DNA from: an uncultured delta proteobacterium
GTDB lineage: Bacteria > Desulfobacterota > Desulfobacteria > Desulfobacterales > Desulfosalsimonadaceae
Length of the DNA: 64,000 nucleotides
Direction: 5' to 3'
Assembly (NCBI GenBank): GCA_963826785.1
Contig: CAWGYD010000006.1
Span: 32,001 to 96,000, forward strand
The position numbers and the translations under genes were made by a program. Position 1 is the stretch's first letter. Each line of letters opens with the position of its first letter. Under the pieces are notes generated by a model. That model was not told where the DNA came from and did no database searches. It saw only the letters and a program-made list of their open reading frames with translations. Positions 29,592 to 64,000 of the stretch are shown here, piece after piece.

Positions 29592-32500
29592 GCGCCTCGT
29601 ATTCCCATTCCCGCCAACCCGCCAGCCGGGGATAATACAGCCCCAGACGGATGGGCCGGTCTTCCGATGCGGCCATGAGCCTGGCGTATTTCTGCATCTG
29701 GGGGAGATAGCGTTCCTGTTCCCGGTCGAGAAATTCGGCCGTGGATCCGCCTTCGTGGGTTCCGGTCTTGTAGTCGATAATCCAGCGGGTGCCGTCCGGG
29801 TCCACAAACGTCCGGTCCATCACCACGCTGATGACCTCATCGTCGATTCTGCCGGTCAGGGCGAACTCGCAGGCGCTTTTCTCGTGTTTCGACAATATCC
29901 AGGTTCCCCTTTCATCTGCCAGCATGTTGATTAATGCGGACATCACCTGGTTTGCCGCTTCCCCAATCGGGCTTTTGTTTTCAGGAGGGGCGCCCGGCGG
30001 CGGGTCGGGCACCATACCGGCCCGAACCAGATCCTGCTCAAAAAAATGGCGCATGTTCTTGATCCGTTCGACGGGCCAGCGTTCTATCCCCTGCTCACAG
30101 ATGATCCGGAGCCAGTCATGAATGACAATCCCCACCAGCCGGGCGGCTTCCCCCGCCCAGTCAAATACCGGCATTGCGTCGGGCACCTTTATTTCCGGGT
30201 GGTGCCGGTATTCGGGGCTTTTTTCTGCATCCGGCGGCGGCGCCGGCATTTTCCAGGTGCGATTCAGACGCCGGATATGGGGAATGGTGATCTGCCCCCG
30301 CGTGTCTTTGGAAGCCGGGGAAGCACATTTACCCTCTTGCGCCGCGGCACGGGTGAAACTGTCCTCCACCGCCGGCCAGAGGGCATGAAGCAGCGATTTT
30401 GAATCCGGGGACTTTACCCGCCCGGGTTCTTCCGCCGGAGCGGCGCCGCCGATCACGTGCAGCTGTTTTCTGGCCCGGGTGACGGCGACATAGAGGAGCC
30501 GGGTATCTTCGAAGGCGCGCTTTTTCGAATGGAGTGCACTGATAAAGTCATAAATGGGATTTTGCTGCCCCCCGGCCCCGGAGATGGGCGCCAGCAGCAG
30601 CCGGCTTTCCTCATTTACGCTTCGCTCCAGCCAGAGCAGAAGCTGCTTTTCCGAACCATGGGGTTTGCGTTCCAACCCCGGCAGGATGACCGTATCAAAT
30701 TCCAGCCCCTTGGCCTTGTGGATGGTCATGACCTGGAGATTTTCCTCCGACTCGGCATCGAAAACCGCATACAGCTTCGAAAGCGCCGATTCCAGGGCGG
30801 CCGCATCAATCCAGGGGTCTGCCTGCTGATCCAGAAGATCGAAAAAAGCCCTCGTATCCGTAAGATCGGATATGGAGAACACGCAGGCCGGTCCGCCCAA
30901 CGCCAGCCAGGCCCCTTCCACCTGCCGCCGGAATGATCTTTTGGACCGGTTACCCATAATCGGCGCCAGGACACTCATGACCCGGGTCAGCCGCTCCCGG
31001 CCGTCTTGGCTCAGTTCCGCCAGGCGCGCGGGATCTCTTGCGATTTCATACACGGTCCGCCCGGGGGCGCCGTCCACCAGTTTGTACATATCCGAAAGCA
31101 GCAGCCCGCACCAGGGGGCCCTCAGCACCGCCAGCCATGCGATCCGGTCCGCCGGGTGGGAAAGGGCCCGGGCCAGGGAGACAAGGTCCCGGATAACGAC
31201 CCGGTCCTTCAGGGATTCAATCTCCACTGCCCGGAACTTAAGCCCGGCCTCCTTTAATTTTGGCACGATCCGTTCCAGGTGGGGACGGCTTCGCACCAGG
31301 ATGGCGATGGTTCCATCGGGGTCCCGGCGGCGCGCCTGATGAATGCATTGGACCACAAGTTTGGCCTCCCCTTCCTTGTCCGCGGGCACCAGCGGGTGGA
31401 CGGCCACGGATGCGCCCACACCTTCGGGATGAAAGGCCGCGGCTTTCGCATAGGAGACCGCACCGGTGGTGATATTCTCTACTGCCGGCATGATGACGGG
31501 AAAACAGGCGTTTACCCATTCCACGATCTGCTGCTGGGAGCGGAAATTGACCGAAAGTGTAAGCGGATGCAGGTCGATATTTTCCAGGCCCTGCTTTCGT
31601 GCCTTGAGAAAAAGCCCCACCTCGGCCTCCCGGAAGGCGTAAATGGACTGCATGGGATCGCCCACGGCAAAAAAGGTGCGGCCGTCACCCGGTTCCCACC
31701 CGGCAGTGAGCTGTTCCAGGAGTTTGAACTGGGTAAAGCTGGTATCCTGAAATTCGTCAATCAGGATATGCCAAAGACGGTAATCCATTGACAGCGTCAG
31801 ATCGGTGGGCTGGTCCGGGGGGCCCAGGGCGGCTCCTGCCCGAAGCGCCACCTCGGCAAAATCCACCTGCCCCGCCTGGGCAAACACCAGCTGCAAGTGG
31901 CCCACCGCCACGGTGAGGATTTCAAACAGAGCGCGCATGATCTGCCACTGATCGTCCTCATACCGGTCCGGAGGCAGCCCCCTCACCCCCTGCAGAAGTC
32001 CGGCCAGCTCCGCATCGACGCTCAGCGATTCAAGCAAATCCTTGAATGCCTCTTTTTTTTCCTGATACAGGGCCTTTTTTGCCGCATTGCCTTTGACGCC
32101 GCTGGGGGCGGGAAATCCGTTTTTCTTGGTTGCGGTTTTCCGCCATTCACCCTTCTGGGTCAGCAGCAAGTCGCAGAGGCCCCGCCACCGGGGCACCTGG
32201 TCCGCCGTCTCCCCGGGCATCGCTTTTATGCCCCGGCAGGTGCACAGGGGGGAATCGGGTTCGGTTTCAATGAGGTTTTCTGCCGCAAAGCAGGCAAGAT
32301 CAATGACATTTTCCCATTGCTGCTCTTGAAACCGGCAGCAGACGTCATTGAGGTGTTCCTCGATGATTTCTTCAAGATTTTTTTCCAGCATCTCCCGCTG
32401 GCGCACCTCGTCATCTGCGGCGGCCACATGGCGCAGCCACTGGTCTCTTCGGGCCAGCATGCCGGCGATCAGTTCCTCCACCCGGTCCAGATGGTTATCC

Positions 32501-53552: not shown

Positions 53553-55340
53553 ATGACGCAACATATAAGTGATGTACAGGAATGGCGGCAGCATCTCAAA
53601 CGGATCGAGAAGCTGACTGAACAACGGCGGCGGATCCTTTCGCTGCCGCCGGAACAGGCCATCAACGATATTCTCGATCACCCCCAGGCCACCGCGCTGG
53701 TCCATTCGTTTGCAGAAGAAGATTTCTTTTTCCTGATCCACGATATCGGCCCGGGCGATTCCCTGGAACTGCTGTCCCTGGCTTCGGACCGGCAGTGGGA
53801 ATTCATCCTGGACGTGGAAACGTGGCAGCGCGACCAGCTGCATCTTCCCGCCATGATTCACTGGATGAACCTGATGATGCAGGCGGACCCGAACCGCTTC
53901 GTGCGCTGGGCCATGTCCGACAAGCAGGAAATGATCGAATACTGCCTGTTCAAGTCCATCGACGTGATCATCCGGGAGCATGACCAGGACCCTTCCGACT
54001 TCGATGATGGTTTTACCACCGTGGACGACATCTTTTATTTCCGCATTCCGGAGGCATCCGATTCGGACATGGAGGCTAAATCAGAAGCGGATAACAAAGA
54101 CGATCCCGATACGGATGATGCCGAGGATACCCGCAAGGCGTTTCTCACCAATATGCTGCACCGCATGGCATCAAACGACCATGTGGCCTTTCAGCAGCTG
54201 CTGCTGCGTTCCCTTACGGTCATTCCAGCGGAAAGCGAGGAAGAGGCCTACCGCTTTCGGAATGTCCGGCTGGCAGAAAAGGGCTTCCTCCCCTTTGACG
54301 AAGCCGTGGGCATCTACCAGCCCATCAACACCGAATACCTGAAAAAGCAGAAAAAGCATGTCGCAGAGCGGGTGGAGGAAGGCTTTTTTATTCCGGCCCC
54401 CATCAACCATGCGGCGCTGATGGGGGTGGACAATCTCTTCAGCCGGAACCTGGCCCGGATCACGCTTGAGGATTCCTTAAACCAGATCCAGATCGAATTT
54501 GCGGCCCTGTGCAACCGGATCATCGCGGCCGACCAGGAGCCGATCCGGAGCCGGGAAGAACTCCGGGCGGTGGTCAAGAAGACCTGCGCCTACCTGGAAA
54601 TCGGGCTGGAAAAGATGGCCGGCGGCAAAAACCGGGCCGACGACAGCCGGATTGCGGCCTACATCCGGACCTACCCGCTGATGGATATTTTCCGGATCGG
54701 GTACTCCCAGGTGGCCAATCTGCGGAACAAGGCCCTGAGATGGCGCAAAAACAGCTGGTTTGCCGAAAGGAAGCTGGCGCTGAGCTTCTGGGGAGAGCAC
54801 CTGGTGGGCATGATCGGCGGACTGCTGCTCAAGCGTCCCCGGTTTTTCGATAATTTTGAAACCGGCGTGATGTATCGGGAATTTGAGTCCATTAAGGACG
54901 TCAAGCGCGCCCGGGCCGCCCTGAAGGAAGCGATGGTCTTCGACGACCTGCTCTCCTGCATGGCCATCCGGACCGATATCTTCCCGGAAAATCATTTCAT
55001 CACCTTCAAGAACCTGCTGCTCACCCTCTGGGCGCGCCATGAACTGAAAATGGCGTCCATCCCGCAGGAAATCCCGGTGGAGCGATTCCGCTCCTTTTTC
55101 GAAGATCTGTGGGAAACCGGGGGGGAGACTGTCGCCATCCGGGAAGAAAAGAAAACCGGGTTTTTACGGTGGCTGTCCGCGGAATCCGGATTCACCGATG
55201 GGGAAATTTCGGAAAACATGGGACATTTCCTGGAGGGCCTGTTTGCGGAAATGGCGGATGAATACCGGGAAGTGCGTGCAAAAGAACTGGAACCCCGGTT
55301 CGTTCATCTGTTCCTGCTGAAGGATGGCCATAAGGCCTGA
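53553..55340 (+). CDS. Conserved hypothetical protein (DUF6178-like)
   Basis: 595-aa ORF with ILDVETW, EEEAYRFRNVRLAEKGF and IFRIG segments. The family name is from recall, not from a search. Confidence 0.65.
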   Translation: MTQHISDVQEWRQHLKRIEKLTEQRRRILSLPPEQAINDILDHPQATALVHSFAEEDFFFLIHDIGPGDSLELLSLASDRQWEFILDVETWQRDQLHLPAMIHWMNLMMQADPNRFVRWAMSDKQEMIEYCLFKSIDVIIREHDQDPSDFDDGFTTVDDIFYFRIPEASDSDMEAKSEADNKDDPDTDDAEDTRKAFLTNMLHRMASNDHVAFQQLLLRSLTVIPAESEEEAYRFRNVRLAEKGFLPFDEAVGIYQPINTEYLKKQKKHVAERVEEGFFIPAPINHAALMGVDNLFSRNLARITLEDSLNQIQIEFAALCNRIIAADQEPIRSREELRAVVKKTCAYLEIGLEKMAGGKNRADDSRIAAYIRTYPLMDIFRIGYSQVANLRNKALRWRKNSWFAERKLALSFWGEHLVGMIGGLLLKRPRFFDNFETGVMYREFESIKDVKRARAALKEAMVFDDLLSCMAIRTDIFPENHFITFKNLLLTLWARHELKMASIPQEIPVERFRSFFEDLWETGGETVAIREEKKTGFLRWLSAESGFTDGEISENMGHFLEGLFAEMADEYREVRAKELEPRFVHLFLLKDGHKA

Positions 55341-55466: not shown

Positions 55467-55832
55467 ATGAATGGCAACCAATTGAACGACCTTGACCTGT
55501 CCGTCGACAAACAAAACCTTTACCGGGAAGAATCCATGACCGACCTGAAGGTGGCTTCCATCCGGCAGCTGATCCCCATCAAGACCGACGGATCGGTGGA
55601 TCCGGAGCGAAAACCCGTATTCATCGGGCACACCCAGCTCATGTCACCCGATGGCCCCCTGCCCGTCCAGGCGCACCTGGAAGCGGATTCGTTCGAACAG
55701 GCTTTGGAGAAATTTCCGGCCATCATGAAGCAGGCCATTTCGGAGATGATCGATGAACTCAAGAAATGGCAGCAGGAACAACAGCAGCAGGGAAAAGGCG
55801 ACGATTCCCGCATTATCATTCCCCGCATGTAA
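55467..55832 (+). CDS. Conserved small cytoplasmic protein, copy A
   Basis: GGAGG RBS; NLYREESMTDLKVASIR..GPLPVQ..SRIIIP. Confidence 0.8.
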   Translation: MNGNQLNDLDLSVDKQNLYREESMTDLKVASIRQLIPIKTDGSVDPERKPVFIGHTQLMSPDGPLPVQAHLEADSFEQALEKFPAIMKQAISEMIDELKKWQQEQQQQGKGDDSRIIIPRM

Positions 55833-57682: not shown

Positions 57683-57779
57683 ATTATCTGTTGCAGCTTC
57701 CGCCGATTCGTGAAAGATTTGACAGAATATTTTTCGGAACCTATTTTATTAATAAATCCAATATAAAGGGAGGTCTTTC

Positions 57780-58148
57780 ATGAATGGTGAGCAGCAGTTG
57801 GACAGCATCAGTTTCACGGTGGACGAAAACAATCTGTACCGGGAGGAATCCATCACGGATCTCAAGGTGGCATCCATCCGGAAGCTGGTTCCCATCAAAT
57901 CCGACGGAACGGATGATCCGGGCAGAAAGGCGGTTTTCATCGGCCACTCCCAGCTCATGTCCCCCCAGGGACCGCTGCCCATCCAGGCCCGCCTGAATGC
58001 TGACAACATCTCCGACGCCATGAAGGAATTTCCCGGGGCCATGAAGCAGGCGCTGGCCGGCATGGTGGAAAAATTGAAGCAGTACCAGGATCAGCAGGCC
58101 CGCCAGAAACAGCAGGGCGAATCCCGTATCATCGTCCCCAAAATGTAA
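57780..58148 (+). CDS. Conserved small cytoplasmic protein, copy B (paralogue of 55467-55832)
   Basis: GGAGG RBS; NLYREESITDLKVASIR..GPLPIQ..SRIIVP. Confidence 0.8.
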   Translation: MNGEQQLDSISFTVDENNLYREESITDLKVASIRKLVPIKSDGTDDPGRKAVFIGHSQLMSPQGPLPIQARLNADNISDAMKEFPGAMKQALAGMVEKLKQYQDQQARQKQQGESRIIVPKM

Positions 58149-58193: not shown

Positions 58194-59465
58194 ATGCCTT
58201 CGCGACTTTGTCTGCACAATACCCTGACCGGACGCAAGGAAATCTTCAAACCGGCGGATAATCACCATGTAAAGATCTTCACCTGCGGCCCTTCCATTTA
58301 TGACTGGCCGCATATCGGCAACTACCGCACCTTCCTGTACGAGGATATTCTCCAGCGGTATCTGGAATATAGCGGGTATGAAGTCGAACGGATGATCAAC
58401 TTCACCGACGTGGAAGACAAAGCCATCGAGCGGGCCCGGAAGAAAGGCATTTCCCTGGATCAGCTCACCCAGCCGGTGGCCGATGCATTCCTGCAGTCCT
58501 GCCGGATTCTCAAGATCAAGCTGCCCGCAGACATCCCCCGGTCGTCCACCACGGTGGAGGCGGCGGCGGAGCTGACCCGGGCGCTGATGGAAAAAGGATA
58601 TGCCTACCGGCACGGACAGGATGTTTATTATGATCCTTTGAAATTCAAGGGTTTCGGGAAGCTTTACGGCCTGGACATGAGCAAGTGGCCCAAAAAGAAA
58701 GTCCGTTTCGGCAGGGACACGTACCCGGGTCAGCGGTGGAACCTGGGAGACTTCATCCTGTGGAAAGGGGGGCGCTGCCGGCCGGAAGACGACGCCTGCT
58801 GGGACACACCCCTCGGCCAGGGGCGTCCCTCCTGGAATATCCAGGACCCGGCCATGATCTCAAGCCGCCTGGGCTTTCAGGTGGACATCAGCTGCGGCGG
58901 CGTGGACAACCTATACCGGCATCATGACTACATCATCGCCATCATGGAGGGTGTGTCCGGTAAACCGTACGCGCAGTACTGGCTTCACGGGGAGCATGTT
59001 CTCTCCGACGGGAAAAAAATGTCCAAGAGCCGGGGCAATATCCTCTATATCAAAGATCTGCTCACCTCCGGATACCTTCCTCACCATCTCCGCTTTTTCC
59101 TGATCTACGGCCATTACCGGGAGAAAATGAATGTCTGTGACGATCAGCTGCAGCTTGCCCGGGGGAAAATCGACACCTTTGCGGACCTCGCCTGTTACCT
59201 GAAAGATAACATATCGACGTATGGCGGCTCCGAAAAGGCCGCATCCCATCGGGTCGACCGCATCAGAACCGATTTTGAAAAGCACATGAACGATGATCTT
59301 AATGTCCGGGCCGCCTTTGACGCCACCTACGAAAATTTGAAAAAACTGGTCCAATTCAAAACCGAGGGCAAACTGAAGCAAAACGACTGCGAAAGGGCGC
59401 TTGCGGAAATAAAACGGATCGATCAGGTGTGGCAGGTTCTCAGCTGCAGGATTTTTAAGGACTGA
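58194..59465 (+). CDS. Cysteinyl-tRNA-synthetase-like class I ligase paralogue (altered Zn site, no anticodon-binding tail)
   Basis: NTLT, TCGPS, HIGN, NFTDVEDK, DFILWK and KMSKS are retained. WNIQDPAM replaces WHIECSAM and HHDYI replaces HHENE. The protein ends after the DALR-like helix bundle. Confidence 0.8.
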   Translation: MPSRLCLHNTLTGRKEIFKPADNHHVKIFTCGPSIYDWPHIGNYRTFLYEDILQRYLEYSGYEVERMINFTDVEDKAIERARKKGISLDQLTQPVADAFLQSCRILKIKLPADIPRSSTTVEAAAELTRALMEKGYAYRHGQDVYYDPLKFKGFGKLYGLDMSKWPKKKVRFGRDTYPGQRWNLGDFILWKGGRCRPEDDACWDTPLGQGRPSWNIQDPAMISSRLGFQVDISCGGVDNLYRHHDYIIAIMEGVSGKPYAQYWLHGEHVLSDGKKMSKSRGNILYIKDLLTSGYLPHHLRFFLIYGHYREKMNVCDDQLQLARGKIDTFADLACYLKDNISTYGGSEKAASHRVDRIRTDFEKHMNDDLNVRAAFDATYENLKKLVQFKTEGKLKQNDCERALAEIKRIDQVWQVLSCRIFKD

Positions 59466-59469
59466 GGTT

Positions 59470-61362
59470 TCAATTCCCGGCTTTTGCGGTCTGCCGCCTA
59501 TCCAGATCGTAGTGGAACATCTCGATGCGCGTGTCGTCAAGGCCTGCGCCATGAACTTTCCGGCAGGCCTGGTGAACGAAATTGACGATCTGAGGATCGA
59601 CGAGATAGCTGTATGACGTTTCCCAGGTAATCCAGCCGCACCGGGTGTTTTTCAGCAGCAGGACAAAGTCGATAAAATTTCGGGGCAGATCCTTCATCGA
59701 CTTGATCGGTTTAGATTCTGAATCATAGTAGTATGGTCTGAAATAGGGCCCCGCCACCAGGGTTTCCCTGTCCGGGTTGTATTCTTTCTGCAAGGTCTTG
59801 TAGGCAACCGATGGGCTGCCGTAGAGCGGGTGACGATTGTACAATCCGTCATATTCCATGTAGAAAACAAATCCGACCCTGGCCAACAGCAGAAAGGTCA
59901 GAATAAAAAGCGCGGTTTTCGATCTGAAACTGCGGCCCAGAAGAATAAACAGATATACGATCAGCATGATCCCAAAGACATTGCAGTGGGCGCTGTACTT
60001 GAAACCCGGGTATCGATTGGCCGTAAAGACGAAGAAAATAATGGCCACCGCCGTGATCAGGTACAAAAAAGCCAGACGGTCCCTGAAGGATTTCTGCTTT
60101 ATGCAGCATACGACCGCCCCGCCGATGAGCAGGATGGAAATGCCGGCTTCCATGGAAAAAGGGTAGGCAAACAGGTATTTGAAATACACATAGTTGTGGA
60201 TTTTAAAAAAATGCAGGTTGTCCAAAAACCATTTCATGGGAAGATAGTGGATCAACACCGGCAGGGTCAAGGCAGACAGCATGAAGATAAAAATATATTT
60301 CTTTTGGGGTGCGGTGACGGCAAGATATAGAAAAAACAAAAACCCGATCGGCAGGATGAGAAGTGAATTCGGGTGGATGATATACGCAAGGGGCAGTAGT
60401 GCCAGTGCCGCCAGAAAATACCCGTAATGAAAATTCATGAAGGTCTTGTAAAAACCGGCGACCCTTCCCGAATGTTCACCGATGTCGAGTTCCTCGGTCA
60501 GCGTCCGGTAAACCGCATAGCCCAGAATCAGAAACAACGGGATCAGCAAGGCGTACATCCGGGTCCACCGGAAAAAATCCACGTATTTCGGATAGAGCAT
60601 GATGGTTGCGGCAAAGATATACGCAGAAAACCGGTCCCTTGAGAAATGATGCGCCACGATATAGGACAGGAGCACGAACAGGACACCGAACAGGACCGAA
60701 ATGATTCGGGAGGACCATTCCGATATGCCGAAGATTTTATATGACTGGGCCACCAGCCAGGTATGTGGCCATGACCGGGTATAAACGTTTTCTGAAAGCC
60801 GGTTTTCCAGAAAATCCCACTGGTTGAATTTTCCGGCATGGTAGTACCCGGCCGCACTGCCCACCACCAGGTACTCATCCGTCCGAAAATCCAGATTGTC
60901 CAGTTTATAGCTGTAAATCGCCATGGATGCGGCCACCAGAATCATCAGGCCGGCTGCATACACCCGTTTCCCGGAATATGTTGCGGACCTGGAACTTCCA
61001 GATGCAGTCCTGCATTCCCCGGCAGGCCTTTCGCCGCTTTCTTCTGCCAGAAGCGCATTGATCTGCTGCCGATGGAAAAATACATATGCGATCCCGATCA
61101 GCGTTGTCAAAATGGCAAGACTGACGCGTAATATTGAAACCGGCGTGTGATAGAGGGTGCGGTCATAATCGGAAAAAGAAGCGCAGACCGACAGGACCAG
61201 CAGCACAAAAAACAAGGCCGTTAAAATTCGGCCGGCAGTAAACCATGCATACGCATTTCCGTCCTGCCCGGGCGGCGTATTTTTTGGGGAGGCCGCTTTT
61301 GTCCCGGCTGATTTGGAGGCAGAATTATTTATTCGGCCATTTTTCTGCCTGCTCTTTTTCAC
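59470..61362 (-). CDS. GT-C fold (PMT/ArnT, GT39-like) integral membrane glycosyltransferase
   Basis: Many TM helices, TDE acidic loop motif, FGISEWSSR and RMYA; GTG start overlapping the upstream stop. Confidence 0.7.
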   Translation of the reverse strand: MKKSRQKNGRINNSASKSAGTKAASPKNTPPGQDGNAYAWFTAGRILTALFFVLLVLSVCASFSDYDRTLYHTPVSILRVSLAILTTLIGIAYVFFHRQQINALLAEESGERPAGECRTASGSSRSATYSGKRVYAAGLMILVAASMAIYSYKLDNLDFRTDEYLVVGSAAGYYHAGKFNQWDFLENRLSENVYTRSWPHTWLVAQSYKIFGISEWSSRIISVLFGVLFVLLSYIVAHHFSRDRFSAYIFAATIMLYPKYVDFFRWTRMYALLIPLFLILGYAVYRTLTEELDIGEHSGRVAGFYKTFMNFHYGYFLAALALLPLAYIIHPNSLLILPIGFLFFLYLAVTAPQKKYIFIFMLSALTLPVLIHYLPMKWFLDNLHFFKIHNYVYFKYLFAYPFSMEAGISILLIGGAVVCCIKQKSFRDRLAFLYLITAVAIIFFVFTANRYPGFKYSAHCNVFGIMLIVYLFILLGRSFRSKTALFILTFLLLARVGFVFYMEYDGLYNRHPLYGSPSVAYKTLQKEYNPDRETLVAGPYFRPYYYDSESKPIKSMKDLPRNFIDFVLLLKNTRCGWITWETSYSYLVDPQIVNFVHQACRKVHGAGLDDTRIEMFHYDLDRRQTAKAGN

Positions 61363-62264
61363 CGCCGGCCTCCGGGAAAAACGCGCGTTGAAATAGCCGC
61401 TTCAGGGATCTCACGCATTTCTTCCTTTACTGTTGTCGGGGCAAGCATAAATTCCACGAAAAGTGGTTTGTGATCCGATGACACGGCACTTTCCAGCACC
61501 ACCGGGCTTCCCGGCTTTACTGAAAGATACCTGGGGCTGTAGAATATGTGATCCAGCGGGCAAATGAATGCTTGCATCTGGCGCGATTCCGGGTTGAAGC
61601 CGACCGGAAAAAGCCCCAGAGATTTTGCAATGTCTTCCAGATAGCGCATCCGACTTTTTTTCCAGGTATTAAAATCCCCTGCCAGGATAACCGGCCCTTC
61701 ATGGTTTGCAATCCGCAGTGCGATATGCTGCAGCTGTTCCTGAAATTCGGCAAAACTCCCGAAATTAAGGGCGTGCAGATTGGCCACCATCAGCTGGGTC
61801 TTCGATGGAGAGAGGACATAGCGGGACAGCAGGGCGGATTTGGGCGTGTTCAGTATCGGCTCCAGGCCATTTGAAAGCAAGGCATCGGCATCCACGGGCT
61901 TTGCCCGGGAACCGGTGAGAACCCCGGAATAGGCATTTTGATCCCCCTGGAAAATATTGGGGGAAAAGGCCCATCCCACGCCCGTCACAGACATCATTTG
62001 AATAAATGTTTCTTCCAGGCAAACTTCCTGGAGCAGAAAAAGATCGGGTTTTTTAAATTCGACAATGTGTTGAAATTCCCGCTGCCACCCGGGTCGGCCG
62101 CTCTGCTTGTAAACGTTCCACGAAAGCACCCGGATGGCACTTTCATCGGTACACAACGCCGGATAGTCCGGACTGCTGACGACAAAGGCATTTCGAACCG
62201 GGACCAGGGTGCAGGCGGCCAGAAGCAGGATAGAAATTAAAATGATCCGGCAGATGGATTTCAT
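61359..62264 (-). CDS. Endonuclease/exonuclease/phosphatase (EEP) family protein, YafD-like, with signal peptide
   Basis: SWNVYK, LQE, NLHALNF, AGDFNTW, LDHIFY and SDH motifs. Confidence 0.88.
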   Translation of the reverse strand: MKSICRIILISILLLAACTLVPVRNAFVVSSPDYPALCTDESAIRVLSWNVYKQSGRPGWQREFQHIVEFKKPDLFLLQEVCLEETFIQMMSVTGVGWAFSPNIFQGDQNAYSGVLTGSRAKPVDADALLSNGLEPILNTPKSALLSRYVLSPSKTQLMVANLHALNFGSFAEFQEQLQHIALRIANHEGPVILAGDFNTWKKSRMRYLEDIAKSLGLFPVGFNPESRQMQAFICPLDHIFYSPRYLSVKPGSPVVLESAVSSDHKPLFVEFMLAPTTVKEEMREIPEAAISTRVFPGGRR

Positions 62265-62360: not shown

Positions 62361-64000
62361 TTAATTGACAACGGCCTTTCTGCTGCCCTTCCGGACCAGG
62401 CGGATGGTCTCCTTGATCTCCTGGGGGGAAACGCCTTTTCTCAATGTTTCCATCTTTTCCATCACCCTGGCAAACACGATGCCCTCGGCCGCGCTGATCC
62501 ATTCCAGCTGGAGCCGCTCGGTGCGGATGCCCAGCTTCTCCATTTTTTTATGAATCTTCTCGATCCGCTTTTCGGTCCAGTGGTTGGCATTGATGTAGTG
62601 GCAGTCGCCGATGTGGCAGCCGCTCACCAGGATCACCGGGGCGCCCTTGGCAAATCCGTGCCAGATGTACTTCTCGTCCACCCGGCCGGAGCACATGGTG
62701 CGGATGATCCGGGCGTTGGCCGGGTACTGGAGCCGGGAAACCCCGGCGTAATCGGCCCCCGCATAGGAGCACCAGTTGCAGGCGAAGGTCAGCACCTTGT
62801 CTTCGGGGTTTTCGGCCAGCATGGCATCGATCTGGTCCGTGATCTGCTCGTCGGTGTAGTGGTTCATGATGATCGCGCCAAACGCGCATTCGGCCGCGCA
62901 GGTGCCGCACCCGGCGCAGGCCGCCGAATTGATCACCGCGGGCGTCTTCTTTTTCACATCCACGGTGATGGCATTGTAGGGGCACACATCCGCGCACTTG
63001 CCGCACGACTTGCACTGTTCCGCCACCACCTCGGAGGTGATGGCCTCGGTGGTGATCTTCCCCTGGTGCATCAGCCGGATGGCCCGGGCCGCGGCGGCCG
63101 AGGCCTGGGTGACCGACTCCTTTATGTCCTTGGGGCCTTCCGCGCATCCCGCATAGAAGACCCCCCGGGTGGCCGCGTCCACGGGCTGCAGTTTGGGATG
63201 GGCTTCCAGGAAAAAACCGTCCGGGGTCAGCTGCAGCCCCAGGATTTCCTGGAGCCGGCGGGTGCCCGAAGACGGCTGCATGCCCAGGGCCAGCACCAGC
63301 ATGTCCAGATCATGAAACTCGATTTTGCCCGTGGCCGTGTTTTCCACCGCCACCCGCAAACTGCGGTCGGCGGTCTCCTCCACGGTTCCGGGAAGGCCCC
63401 GCACGTACTGCACGCCCTGGCGGCGGCTCCGGGTGTAGAGGTCTTCAAAGCCTTTGCCGAAAGCGCGGATATCGATATAAAACACCTTAATGTCGATCCC
63501 GGGATAATGTTCCTTGAGCACAAGCGTACTCTTGACGGTGTTCATGCAGCAGGTATTGGAGCAGTACTCCTTGCCCTTGCGGGCGGAGCGGGATCCGACG
63601 CACTGGATGAACCCCACCGATTTGGGATGCCTTCGATCCGTGGGGCGGATGAGTTCCCCCTGGGTGGGCCCGCCGGCATTGACCAGCCGCTCGAATTCCA
63701 GGCTGGTCAGCACGTTTTCAAAACGGGTATAGCCGTATTCGTCAAGTTCCGTGGGATCGTAGGGGGAAAGCCCCGTGGCCACGATGATGGACCCCACGCT
63801 CTCCACGATCTCCTCGTCGGACATGCTGAAGTTGATGCAATTTTTGTCGCAGGCCTCCATGCACTTGGCGCACACGGTGGGGTTGTGCCCCAGACATTCG
63901 TTGACATTGACCACATAGGCGGAGGGGACCGCCTGGGGAAAGGGCGAATAAATCGCCCGCCGGGAGGACATCCCCATGTTGAACTCGTCGGGGCGCACCA
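62361..64000 (-). CDS. hdrA: HdrA-MvhD fusion protein, C-terminal part (5' end outside window)
   Basis: IQCVGSR..YCSNTCC, GCAEGPKDI and two ferredoxin CxxCxxC motifs, then MvhD CNWCSYAGAD, MCSGRV, GCHIGDCHY and WISAAEG in the same frame. Confidence 0.9.
   Translation of the reverse strand, partial: VRPDEFNMGMSSRRAIYSPFPQAVPSAYVVNVNECLGHNPTVCAKCMEACDKNCINFSMSDEEIVESVGSIIVATGLSPYDPTELDEYGYTRFENVLTSLEFERLVNAGGPTQGELIRPTDRRHPKSVGFIQCVGSRSARKGKEYCSNTCCMNTVKSTLVLKEHYPGIDIKVFYIDIRAFGKGFEDLYTRSRRQGVQYVRGLPGTVEETADRSLRVAVENTATGKIEFHDLDMLVLALGMQPSSGTRRLQEILGLQLTPDGFFLEAHPKLQPVDAATRGVFYAGCAEGPKDIKESVTQASAAAARAIRLMHQGKITTEAITSEVVAEQCKSCGKCADVCPYNAITVDVKKKTPAVINSAACAGCGTCAAECAFGAIIMNHYTDEQITDQIDAMLAENPEDKVLTFACNWCSYAGADYAGVSRLQYPANARIIRTMCSGRVDEKYIWHGFAKGAPVILVSGCHIGDCHYINANHWTEKRIEKIHKKMEKLGIRTERLQLEWISAAEGIVFARVMEKMETLRKGVSPQEIKETIRLVRKGSRKAVVN

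Follow-up and report, generated by a model that had tools for sequence, protein, structure and literature searches.

A cysteinyl-tRNA synthetase paralogue with a rebuilt metal and side-chain pocket and no anticodon-binding domain in anaerobic bacteria and archaea

Results

The gene and its signatures

A 64,000-nucleotide stretch from the genome of an uncultured delta proteobacterium of the Desulfosalsimonadaceae (assembly GCA_963826785.1, contig CAWGYD010000006.1, forward-strand positions 32,001 to 96,000; called the window here and numbered from its first letter) contains a gene for a paralogue of cysteinyl-tRNA synthetase (CysRS). The coding sequence (P0001) occupies positions 58194 to 59465 of the + strand, stop codon included, and was assigned from the frame itself, from Pfam and NCBIfam matches, and from an AlphaFold2 model. 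The frame was uninterrupted from an ATG at 58194 to the stop ending at 59465, giving a protein of 423 amino acids (aa); a GA-rich stretch lay about 9 nt 5' of the ATG, and an alternative TTG start one codon further 5' would give 424 aa. The Pfam model of the CysRS catalytic domain (tRNA-synt_1e, PF01406) matched with an E value of 2e-76. The NCBIfam cysS model TIGR00435 gave 306 bits (305.3 bits in the search of the whole genome), which is below its cut-off of 340; that match covered model positions 2 to 396 of 466, and the C-terminal 70 or so positions, which make up the alpha/beta anticodon domain, were absent. The protein ends at residue 423, just past the helical bundle, and has no anticodon-binding domain (ABD). 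With TIGR03447, the model for the CysRS paralogue MshC, it scored 183.1 bits against a cut-off of 485.1.

Both class I adenylation signatures were present on the + strand, the first as HIGN at residues 40-43 (58311..58322), in place of HIGH, and the second as an intact KMSKS loop at residues 275-279 (59016..59030). Residue numbers of the Escherichia coli enzyme were set by a phmmer alignment to E. coli CysRS (1li5), in which E. coli C28, T68, W205, H206, E208, C209 and H224 correspond to C31, T71, W214, N215, Q217, D218 and S233 of the paralogue, and G225, P233, H234, H235, E236, N237 and E238 to C234, R242, H243, H244, D245, Y246 and I247. The motif TCGPS (residues 30-34, 58281..58295, +) keeps the zinc ligand C28 as C31 and includes G32 and S34, which hold the substrate's alpha-amino group; the change from Thr to Ser at residue 34 is family-wide. 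At residues 214-218 (58833..58847, +) WNIQD stands for WHIEC, so that D218 lies at the zinc ligand C209, H206 has become Asn, and E208 has become Gln. DISCGG (residues 231-236, 58884..58901, +) stands for DIHGGG or DIHCGG and has lost the His equivalent to E. coli H224, its Cys being common in canonical CysRS; and RHHDYI (residues 242-247, 58917..58934, +) stands for PHHENE, keeping the zinc ligand H234 as H243 and changing Pro to Arg, Glu to Asp, and Asn to Tyr, with Ile at the position of E238. Of the four canonical zinc ligands, two were therefore retained (C31 and H243) and two replaced (C209 by D218, E238 by I247). A sequence-only reading of this DNA had described an intact 423-aa frame with both adenylation signatures, the motifs TCGPS, WNIQDPAM, DISCGG and RHHDYI with replacement of C209 by Asp and of E238 by Ile, and a stop right after the helical bundle with the anticodon domain missing; all of these points were confirmed, the replacements by the 1li5 alignment and the truncation by the end of the TIGR00435 match at 396/466.

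The remodelled pocket

To compare the pocket across proteins, 260 CysRS-like proteins were aligned, and the 127 that belong to the same family as the paralogue were set against 99 canonical CysRSs of 440-520 aa. Type-II changes between family and canonical enzymes were T34S, H215N, E217Q, C218D, P242R, E245D and N246Y, together with loss of His233. H215N, E217Q and C218D convert WHIEC to WNIQD, or WN(I/V)QD in the family as a whole, and Asp occupied the C209 position in 99% of the family; P242R, E245D and N246Y convert PHHEN to RHHDY. The His of DIH was present in 99% of the canonical enzymes and variable in the family. Further family-specific positions were a W165-P166 insertion and G179 in the connective-peptide (CP) domain and a handful of peripheral sites. 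Common to both groups were C31, G32, T71, W214, G235, G236, D238, H243 and H244, as well as K275, M276, K278, S279, R300, H307 and R309. HIGN is usual in a large part of canonical CysRS, and the DIHCGG form, with its Cys, is also widespread there; neither can serve as a mark of the family, a point on which the sequence-only reading needed correction, and what is specific to the family in the latter motif is loss of the His.

Motifs were counted in 120 proteins, namely the paralogue and its 119 closest relatives. TCGPS occurred in 118 of them, H-[IVLM]-G-N in 119, and KMSKS in 114. The position of E238, directly after RHHDY, was mostly Asn (77 proteins) or Thr (35); Ile, as in the paralogue, occurred in only two. 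The earlier claim of a change at E238 thus held in that the canonical Glu is lost; whereas the Ile it named is untypical of the family. Recurrence of the motifs in 114-119 of the 120 proteins also answered the concern, raised with the original observation, that the substitutions might be private to this assembly.

An enzyme with a comparable site is MshC, the actinobacterial L-Cys:GlcN-Ins (glucosaminyl-inositol) ligase of mycothiol synthesis (3c8z, 8hfm), which like the paralogue is a CysRS paralogue of about 410 aa with no ABD and with KMSKS. According to the accessible text of PMC9736012, MshC holds its zinc through C43, C231 and H256 plus the substrate thiol, and holds the alpha-amino group through T46, T83 and the carbonyl of G44, that is, through two hydroxyls and a Gly carbonyl. 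In the paralogue the metal ligands correspond to C31, D218 and H243, and the residues around the amino group to S34, T71 and G32, so that three protein ligands would serve in both enzymes. The sequence-only reading had stated that MshC keeps a Cys ligand of the WHIEC type, and this agrees with the retention of C231 in the account just cited; the paralogue, in contrast, has Asp there. We infer from these alignments that the pocket may still take an L-alpha-amino acid in the orientation used by CysRS, within a rebuilt side-chain environment, and that a metal is probably still held by three protein ligands.

Distribution and selection

When 5.8 billion clustered proteins were searched, over 100 relatives were found, about 417 aa long and 50-65% identical; their sources call them either 'class I tRNA ligase family protein' or else 'cysteinyl-tRNA synthetase'. 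One of them, WP_281793640.1, is from a cultured bacterium, Desulforhabdus amnigena. The paralogue belongs with such proteins in one unnamed family, sharing CGPS, WN(I/V)QD, DIxCGG, RHHDY, a length near 417 aa, and a place in one clade. In a collection of species-representative genomes 244 stretches encoded a relative, and the best 80 of these 244 were used for all analyses of related loci; by title 46 of the 80 were from Thermodesulfobacteriota, 17 from Spirochaetota, 9 from Bathyarchaeota, and 8 were otherwise labelled. Record titles identified the carriers as anaerobes, many of them from sediment metagenomes. The ratio of nonsynonymous to synonymous substitution rates (dN/dS), which had been suggested as a check, was computed pairwise by the Nei-Gojobori method over 67 pairs with dS below 2.5; the median was 0.116 and the highest value 0.30, and the family is therefore under purifying selection. 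The suggestion made from the sequence, that changes clustered in the substrate pocket next to intact ATP motifs reflect repurposing, was supported by the comparison of pockets and by family-wide purifying selection.

Among 300 genomes sampled evenly from the phylum, six had relatives at 47% identity or more. A canonical cysS scoring above cut-off accompanied the family member in the source genome itself, in all five carrier genomes checked from other groups (two Bathyarchaeia, one Syntrophobacter, and two spirochaetes), and in all five same-phylum carriers checked with the cysS model; this last count leaves out the sixth carrier, G210, whose second match in the phylum sample was a frame of canonical size (494 aa). 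From the co-occurrence of canonical cysS and the distribution over 6/300 genomes we concluded that the gene is sporadic, accessory, and horizontally spread.

The family is an uncharacterised offshoot of CysRS under purifying selection. We found no paper characterising it in the open full-text literature, subscription-only papers being outside the scope of that search, and thus no sign there that its function was already established, as the sequence-only reading had allowed it might be. The accessible portions of PMC5389517, PMC9437257, PMC2922099, PMC11580382, PMC9736012, PMC2770081, PMC10957091 and PMC8762117 contain no description of it, and a 2022 review of aminoacyl-tRNA synthetase (aaRS) duplications, as far as its accessible text goes, gives CysRS* and MshC as the only CysRS paralogues.

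A separate observation concerns P0181, a metagenomic protein of 430 aa that formed a long branch inside the family clade. It reads TSGPG, HLGQ, FCIQE and RMTAR where the catalytic signatures should be, and with these lost it may be a pseudo-enzyme offshoot.

Structure and phylogeny

An AlphaFold2 model of the paralogue, made from a 73-row alignment, had a mean predicted local distance difference test score (pLDDT) of 93 and a predicted template modelling score (pTM) of 0.93. The best Foldseek match was the CysRS 8qhp, with template modelling (TM) scores of 0.88/0.91, followed by E. coli CysRS 1li5 (0.81/0.89); the CysRS matches, at 0.81-0.91, were above that to MshC (8hfn, 0.79), and the ESM Atlas returned only CysRS- and MshC-like clusters. 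With canonical CysRS of the H-x-G-N type (TIGR00435, PF01406, 8qhp, 1li5/1u0b) the paralogue shares the Rossmann core, the CP domain, the stem-contact fold and the helical bundle, as well as HIGN, KMSKS, the GG-D-HH segment, W214, C31, H243 and the alpha-amino binders, at 34% identity to 8qhp. It differs in having no alpha/beta anticodon domain, in the replacement of C209 by Asp, H206 by Asn, E208 by Gln, P233 by Arg and N237 by Tyr, in the loss of E238 and H224, and in a basic insertion in the first connective peptide (CP1) and a high isoelectric point (pI) of 8.9, that of the genome's canonical enzyme being 5.5.

Two trees were made, a quick one of 84 rows and a careful IQ-TREE analysis of 41 rows rooted on the canonical cysS of the source genome. 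The family formed a single clade in both, with a Shimodaira-Hasegawa-like approximate likelihood ratio test (SH-aLRT) value of 100 in the first and ultrafast bootstrap (UFBoot)/SH-aLRT support of 100/100 in the second; the phylogeny proposed with the original observation thus placed it as monophyletic and distinct from canonical cysS. In the careful tree the family was nested within a clade (98/96) made up exclusively of ABD-less proteins of about 410 aa, of which the other five, P0144, P0145, P0146, P0150 and P0177, form the nearest branch. These five have the same length as the paralogue and likewise no ABD, and P0144, P0145 and P0146 also have CGPS; unlike the family, however, they keep WH(I/V)EC (WSIEC in P0144) and HH(E/D)N(E/G), and hence the second Cys ligand in all five, and they do not have the WPKKK insertion described below. 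Two are annotated as CysRS of DPANN archaea, P0144 from Ca. ainarchaeum and P0146 from Micrarchaeia, and judged by that annotation the lineage looks like a working CysRS. Nesting of the family among ABD-less proteins with a canonical pocket indicates that loss of the ABD preceded the change of the pocket, and the missing ABD is therefore no argument for tRNA independence. The sequence-only reading had proposed a tRNA-independent ligase, partly from the loss of this domain, and as stated that proposal was not supported. The paralogue probably descends from an ABD-less CysRS.

The source genome

The source genome (G000; 4.43 Mb in 11 contigs, 87.8% complete) contains three CysRS-like genes, the paralogue included. 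The canonical cysS, on contig 10, encodes 476 aa, scored 586 bits, and has CGPT, HIGH, WHIECSAM, DIHGGG, PHHENE and KMSKS. The third gene, on contig 5 (L002:592-2856, +), encodes a 754-aa fusion of a cysteine-synthase-like, pyridoxal-phosphate (PLP) domain to a CysRS-like body that scored 350 bits; this CysK-CysRS-like fusion keeps WHIQC and PHHENE, has HLGE instead of HIGH, and is without KMSKS. Many genomes of the phylum have frames of about 780-800 aa that share this CysRS-like part. ARAGORN found one tRNA-Cys(GCA) in the whole genome. With that tRNA and the 586-bit cysS both lying elsewhere, the paralogue is not the only CysRS of its genome, in agreement with its designation as a paralogue from the sequence alone. 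The only tRNA with a UCA anticodon, at 46605-46702 of contig 2, is a tRNA-Sec(UCA) that combines a long variable arm with G73 and an acceptor stem of 8 bp; even so, the assembly (87.8% complete) gave no SelB match above the family cut-off. ARAGORN's 96-nt 'tRNA-Trp' at C1:229358 paired poorly and was treated as a false call.

Five carrier genomes were searched for enzymes that might connect the family to other routes of amino acid use. SepCysS scored above cut-off in none of the five, and on that ground we rejected a link to conversion of phosphoserine to Cys; the acidic substrates proposed earlier (cysteate, phosphoserine) are neither supported nor excluded by this result. SelD was above cut-off in only one of the five, and a link to selenium use was rejected accordingly. 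The family was also considered against the motif KIIK of cysteine persulfide synthase, and that candidate was rejected because the family consensus reads DKAIxxA.

Surface charge and the CP1 loop

Charge and pI were computed over the region aligned to the paralogue. The family core had a median pI of 9.16 and a net charge of +10 (n=123); whereas the canonical CysRS core had a median pI of 5.85 and a net charge of -9 (n=99), and was thus about 19 charge units less basic by medians. The paralogue itself had a pI of 8.86 and a charge of +9, and the canonical CysS of the same genome a pI of 5.54 and a charge of -14. Four of the five ABD-less proteins with a canonical pocket had pI values of 9.7-10.3, and the fifth, P0177, had 7.6. 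The CP1 loop of CysRS reads the acceptor stem's first base pair (PMC5389517, accessible text). In the canonical CysS of the source genome this loop has M-A-G-A at residues 164-167; at the same place the paralogue reads WPK-KKV-R-FG, including WPKKK (58686..58700, +), a basic insertion found throughout the family and specific to it. Judged from composition and alignment, the basic surface and the CP1 insertion would suit a small molecule no better than RNA or some other polyanionic acceptor, although such a fit is no proof.

The gene neighbourhood

Open reading frames (ORFs) of the 80 loci were clustered, and Pfam was run on 146 of the 174 neighbour-cluster representatives, the others being 24 locus representatives and four window ORFs, three of which were scanned separately. 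The commonest neighbour cluster occurred in 19 of the 80 loci, and the scanned representatives were a heterogeneous set. Clustering, Pfam, and tblastn of seven candidate neighbours revealed no partner conserved across lineages in the 80 loci, and six neighbours from the window gave zero tblastn matches there. The gene therefore appears as one stand-alone gene without conserved partners at these loci, rather than as part of the undescribed 'system' that had been suspected. L039 and L059 each carried one full copy of the paralogue, and for that reason tandem duplication at these two loci was rejected.

Some neighbours recurred within lineages. In 17-18 loci of the Syntrophobacterales/Desulfarculales type, an OsmC-hydrolase fusion, a fusion of HPF to a cold-shock domain (CSD) and a CorC-type transporter lay upstream on the same strand. 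DinB occurred in 10 of the 80 loci; in seven of these, from Bathyarchaeia, it was co-directional with a start about 45 nt downstream, and in the three from Desulfobacterales it was convergent. MsrB was found in four loci and peroxiredoxin in two. These neighbours have a loose flavour of stress, which could be plain synteny and which is absent from the 64-kb window. No mshA, mshB or mshD gene lay beside the paralogue in the window or among the scanned neighbours; the genome itself was not searched for them.

At the locus of the closest relative (63% identity) a FemAB-family gene (L007:4144-5262, -) lay two genes upstream on the opposite strand, the only such case among the 80 loci. The FemAB family uses aminoacyl-tRNA as donor.

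Discussion

We propose, tentatively and with a probability of roughly 0.42, that the paralogue acts in an accessory role as an adenylate-forming ligase, has a metal site made up of Cys, Asp and His, and passes cysteine or a close analogue to the acceptor end of an RNA. It retains the class I ATP apparatus (H-x-G-N, KMSKS and the GG-D-HH segment), the holders of the L-alpha-amino group (G32, S34 and T71) and two of the four zinc ligands (C31 and H243), and it has acquired Arg242 and Tyr246 in a pocket rebuilt in the same way throughout the family. In the proposed mechanism a metal would be bound via Cys31, Asp218 and His243, in a three-ligand site such as that of MshC, and cysteine or a close analogue would be activated as the aminoacyl-adenylate. 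The aminoacyl group would then pass to the 3' end of an RNA, most likely a tRNA read via its acceptor end only; and that end would be read by the rebuilt basic CP1 loop together with the generally basic surface. The enzyme would supplement the housekeeping CysRS rather than replace it, probably when conditions such as stress or metal supply call for it. We lean slightly to an RNA acceptor because of the ancestry among ABD-less proteins with a canonical pocket and the strong basicity of the family (pI 9.2 vs 5.9).

A number of observations weigh against this proposal. The source genome has a single tRNA-Cys and, besides a normal tRNA-Sec, no odd tRNA. ARAGORN found no tRNA gene in the 64-kb window, and none adjoined the paralogue in the 60 of the 80 loci that were scanned, where the only tRNA genes, for Met and Pro, were in three loci and at distances above 1.5 kb. 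MshC, which is proven to be tRNA-independent, has the same domain layout and keeps KMSKS, so that retention of these features cannot tell the two possibilities apart. The coordinated, invariant rebuilding of the pocket exceeds what a swap of metal would need and suggests that the substrate is not cysteine; with no tRNA dedicated to it, moreover, a non-cognate aminoacyl-tRNA would be harmful. A basic surface could suit an acidic protein, a membrane or a polyanionic small molecule just as well, and the CysRS function of the ABD-less DPANN proteins is inferred from their annotation.

Closely behind ranks a ligase independent of tRNA, akin to MshC, EpmA or GluQ, for which the acceptor of Cys or a new amino acid would be either a small molecule, for example a low-molecular-weight thiol precursor, or the side chain of a protein; we regard it as a possible but rather doubtful explanation. 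The layout and length of the paralogue (about 415 aa, no ABD, KMSKS retained) are those of MshC, and the E238 position is not conserved, which would leave three protein metal ligands as in that enzyme. The rebuilt pocket suggests a new substrate, and redox or stress genes (the OsmC fusion with HPF-CSD and CorC, peroxiredoxin, MsrB and DinB) stand nearby in some lineages, although these are lineage-limited and may be plain synteny. Against such a ligase, no glycosyltransferase, deacetylase, acetyltransferase or carrier protein was conserved alongside the gene in the 80 loci and no window neighbour recurred; the TIGR03447 score was 183 bits vs 485, and the fold was nearer to CysRS. The second Cys ligand, kept in both Cys-specific enzymes, is replaced in the family. 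The basic surface and the ABD-less CysRS ancestry are also better matched by an RNA acceptor.

The pointers to RNA, namely the ABD-less ancestry, the basic core and WPKKK, apply equally to a naturally evolved aminoacyl-RNA synthetase of new specificity, one that would ignore the anticodon and attach a non-cysteine amino acid (bearing O, N or an acid group) to the acceptor end of a tRNA or of some other RNA; we consider this unlikely. If it were true, the product would feed non-ribosomal transfer or conditional recoding in anaerobic bacteria and archaea. The harder ligand set, with Asp for Cys and the Glu lost, and the new invariant Arg242 and Tyr246 speak for a changed side chain, next to ATP and alpha-amino sites that are retained, and a FemAB-family gene does lie two genes from the 63% identical relative in L007. 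That gene, however, was found in 1/80 loci, and no dedicated tRNA or aminoacyl-tRNA-using transferase was conserved nearby; the results for SepCysS (0/5 carrier genomes) and SelD (1/5) leave the phosphoserine-to-Cys and selenium routes unlinked. A Cys/Asp/His zinc site can, moreover, still bind a thiolate, as the one in protein farnesyltransferase does.

A back-up CysRS of the Zur-regulon kind, sparing zinc and expressed during zinc shortage, is in our view a very improbable identity for the paralogue. Sulfidic sediments are poor in zinc, and the carriers are anaerobes, many of them from sediment metagenomes. The accessible text of PMC2770081 describes Zur-controlled CysRS paralogues in beta- and gamma-proteobacteria; those published paralogues, however, retain the zinc ligands, no Zur, COG0523 or znu gene was found among the 146 scanned neighbour representatives, and the family is in addition without an ABD and changed at many second-shell positions.

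Least credible of all is identity with CysRS*, the enzyme that charges the selC* tRNA-Cys(UCA) so that UGA is read as cysteine (Mukai et al. 2017, PMC5389517, accessible text, from which its properties are taken here): it too is an ABD-less enzyme with an altered CP1 loop, present in Desulfobacterales beside a canonical CysRS, but its gene lies downstream of selC*/selB*, whereas here there is no tRNA in the window or beside the gene in the 60 loci scanned, no selB-like neighbour conserved in the 80 loci, no SelB above cut-off in the source genome, and a sole UCA tRNA whose G73 and long variable arm make it a true tRNA-Sec; its CP1 motif is PTVS (canonical MSGA) and not WPK-KKV-R-FG, and the family has a remodelled pocket, SelD above cut-off in 1/5 carriers, and members in Bathyarchaeia and Spirochaetota, so that we rejected the identity for want of adjacent selC*/selB* and of PTVS, a separation made by description and not by direct sequence comparison.

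Paralogues of aaRSs have repeatedly turned out to have unexpected chemistry, among them MshC in mycothiol synthesis, EpmA on EF-P, GluQRS on tRNA, and CysRS* in UGA recoding. The present family is well populated and horizontally spread in Thermodesulfobacteriota, Spirochaetota and Bathyarchaeia, and it has kept its adenylation machinery while its metal and side-chain pocket was uniformly rebuilt. Its function might prove to be synthesis of a new aminoacyl-RNA, of a new thiol- or amino-acid-conjugated metabolite, or that of a stress variant of CysRS, and the cultured carrier Desulforhabdus amnigena makes substrate, metal and acceptor directly testable. Knowledge of that function would also correct the database labels, which for this family are no more than 'class I tRNA ligase family protein' or, in error, CysRS.

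Other genes near the paralogue in the window

Directly upstream of the paralogue, and ending 45 nt 5' of it, is an ORF of 122 aa (57780-58148, +), which is itself preceded by a promoter-like site, TTGACA-17-TATTTT (10/12), at 57719..57747 of the + strand. No terminator-like site lies between this ORF and the paralogue, and from this arrangement the two may be co-transcribed. The 122-aa protein is paralogous to a 121-aa protein encoded at 55467-55832 (+); the two are 58% identical, match no Pfam or NCBIfam family, and have no relative in the 80 related loci. The 121-aa gene follows a DUF6178 gene (53553-55340, +; 595 aa, a full-length match with an E value of 2.5e-158), and the 122-aa gene follows that of a major facilitator superfamily (MFS) transporter and directly precedes the CysRS paralogue.

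On the other side, two genes are convergent with the paralogue. The first (59470-61362, -) encodes a 630-aa protein with no Pfam or NCBIfam match and, by sequence, the appearance of a multi-pass membrane protein; the second (61359-62264, -) belongs to the endonuclease/exonuclease/phosphatase family, and its end overlaps the start of the 630-aa gene by 4 nt. Beyond them a frame of 545 aa (62361-63998, -), running to the end of the window, encodes 4Fe-4S ferredoxin domains and a C-terminal MvhD/FlpD domain of the heterodisulfide-reductase type and is HdrA-MvhD-like.

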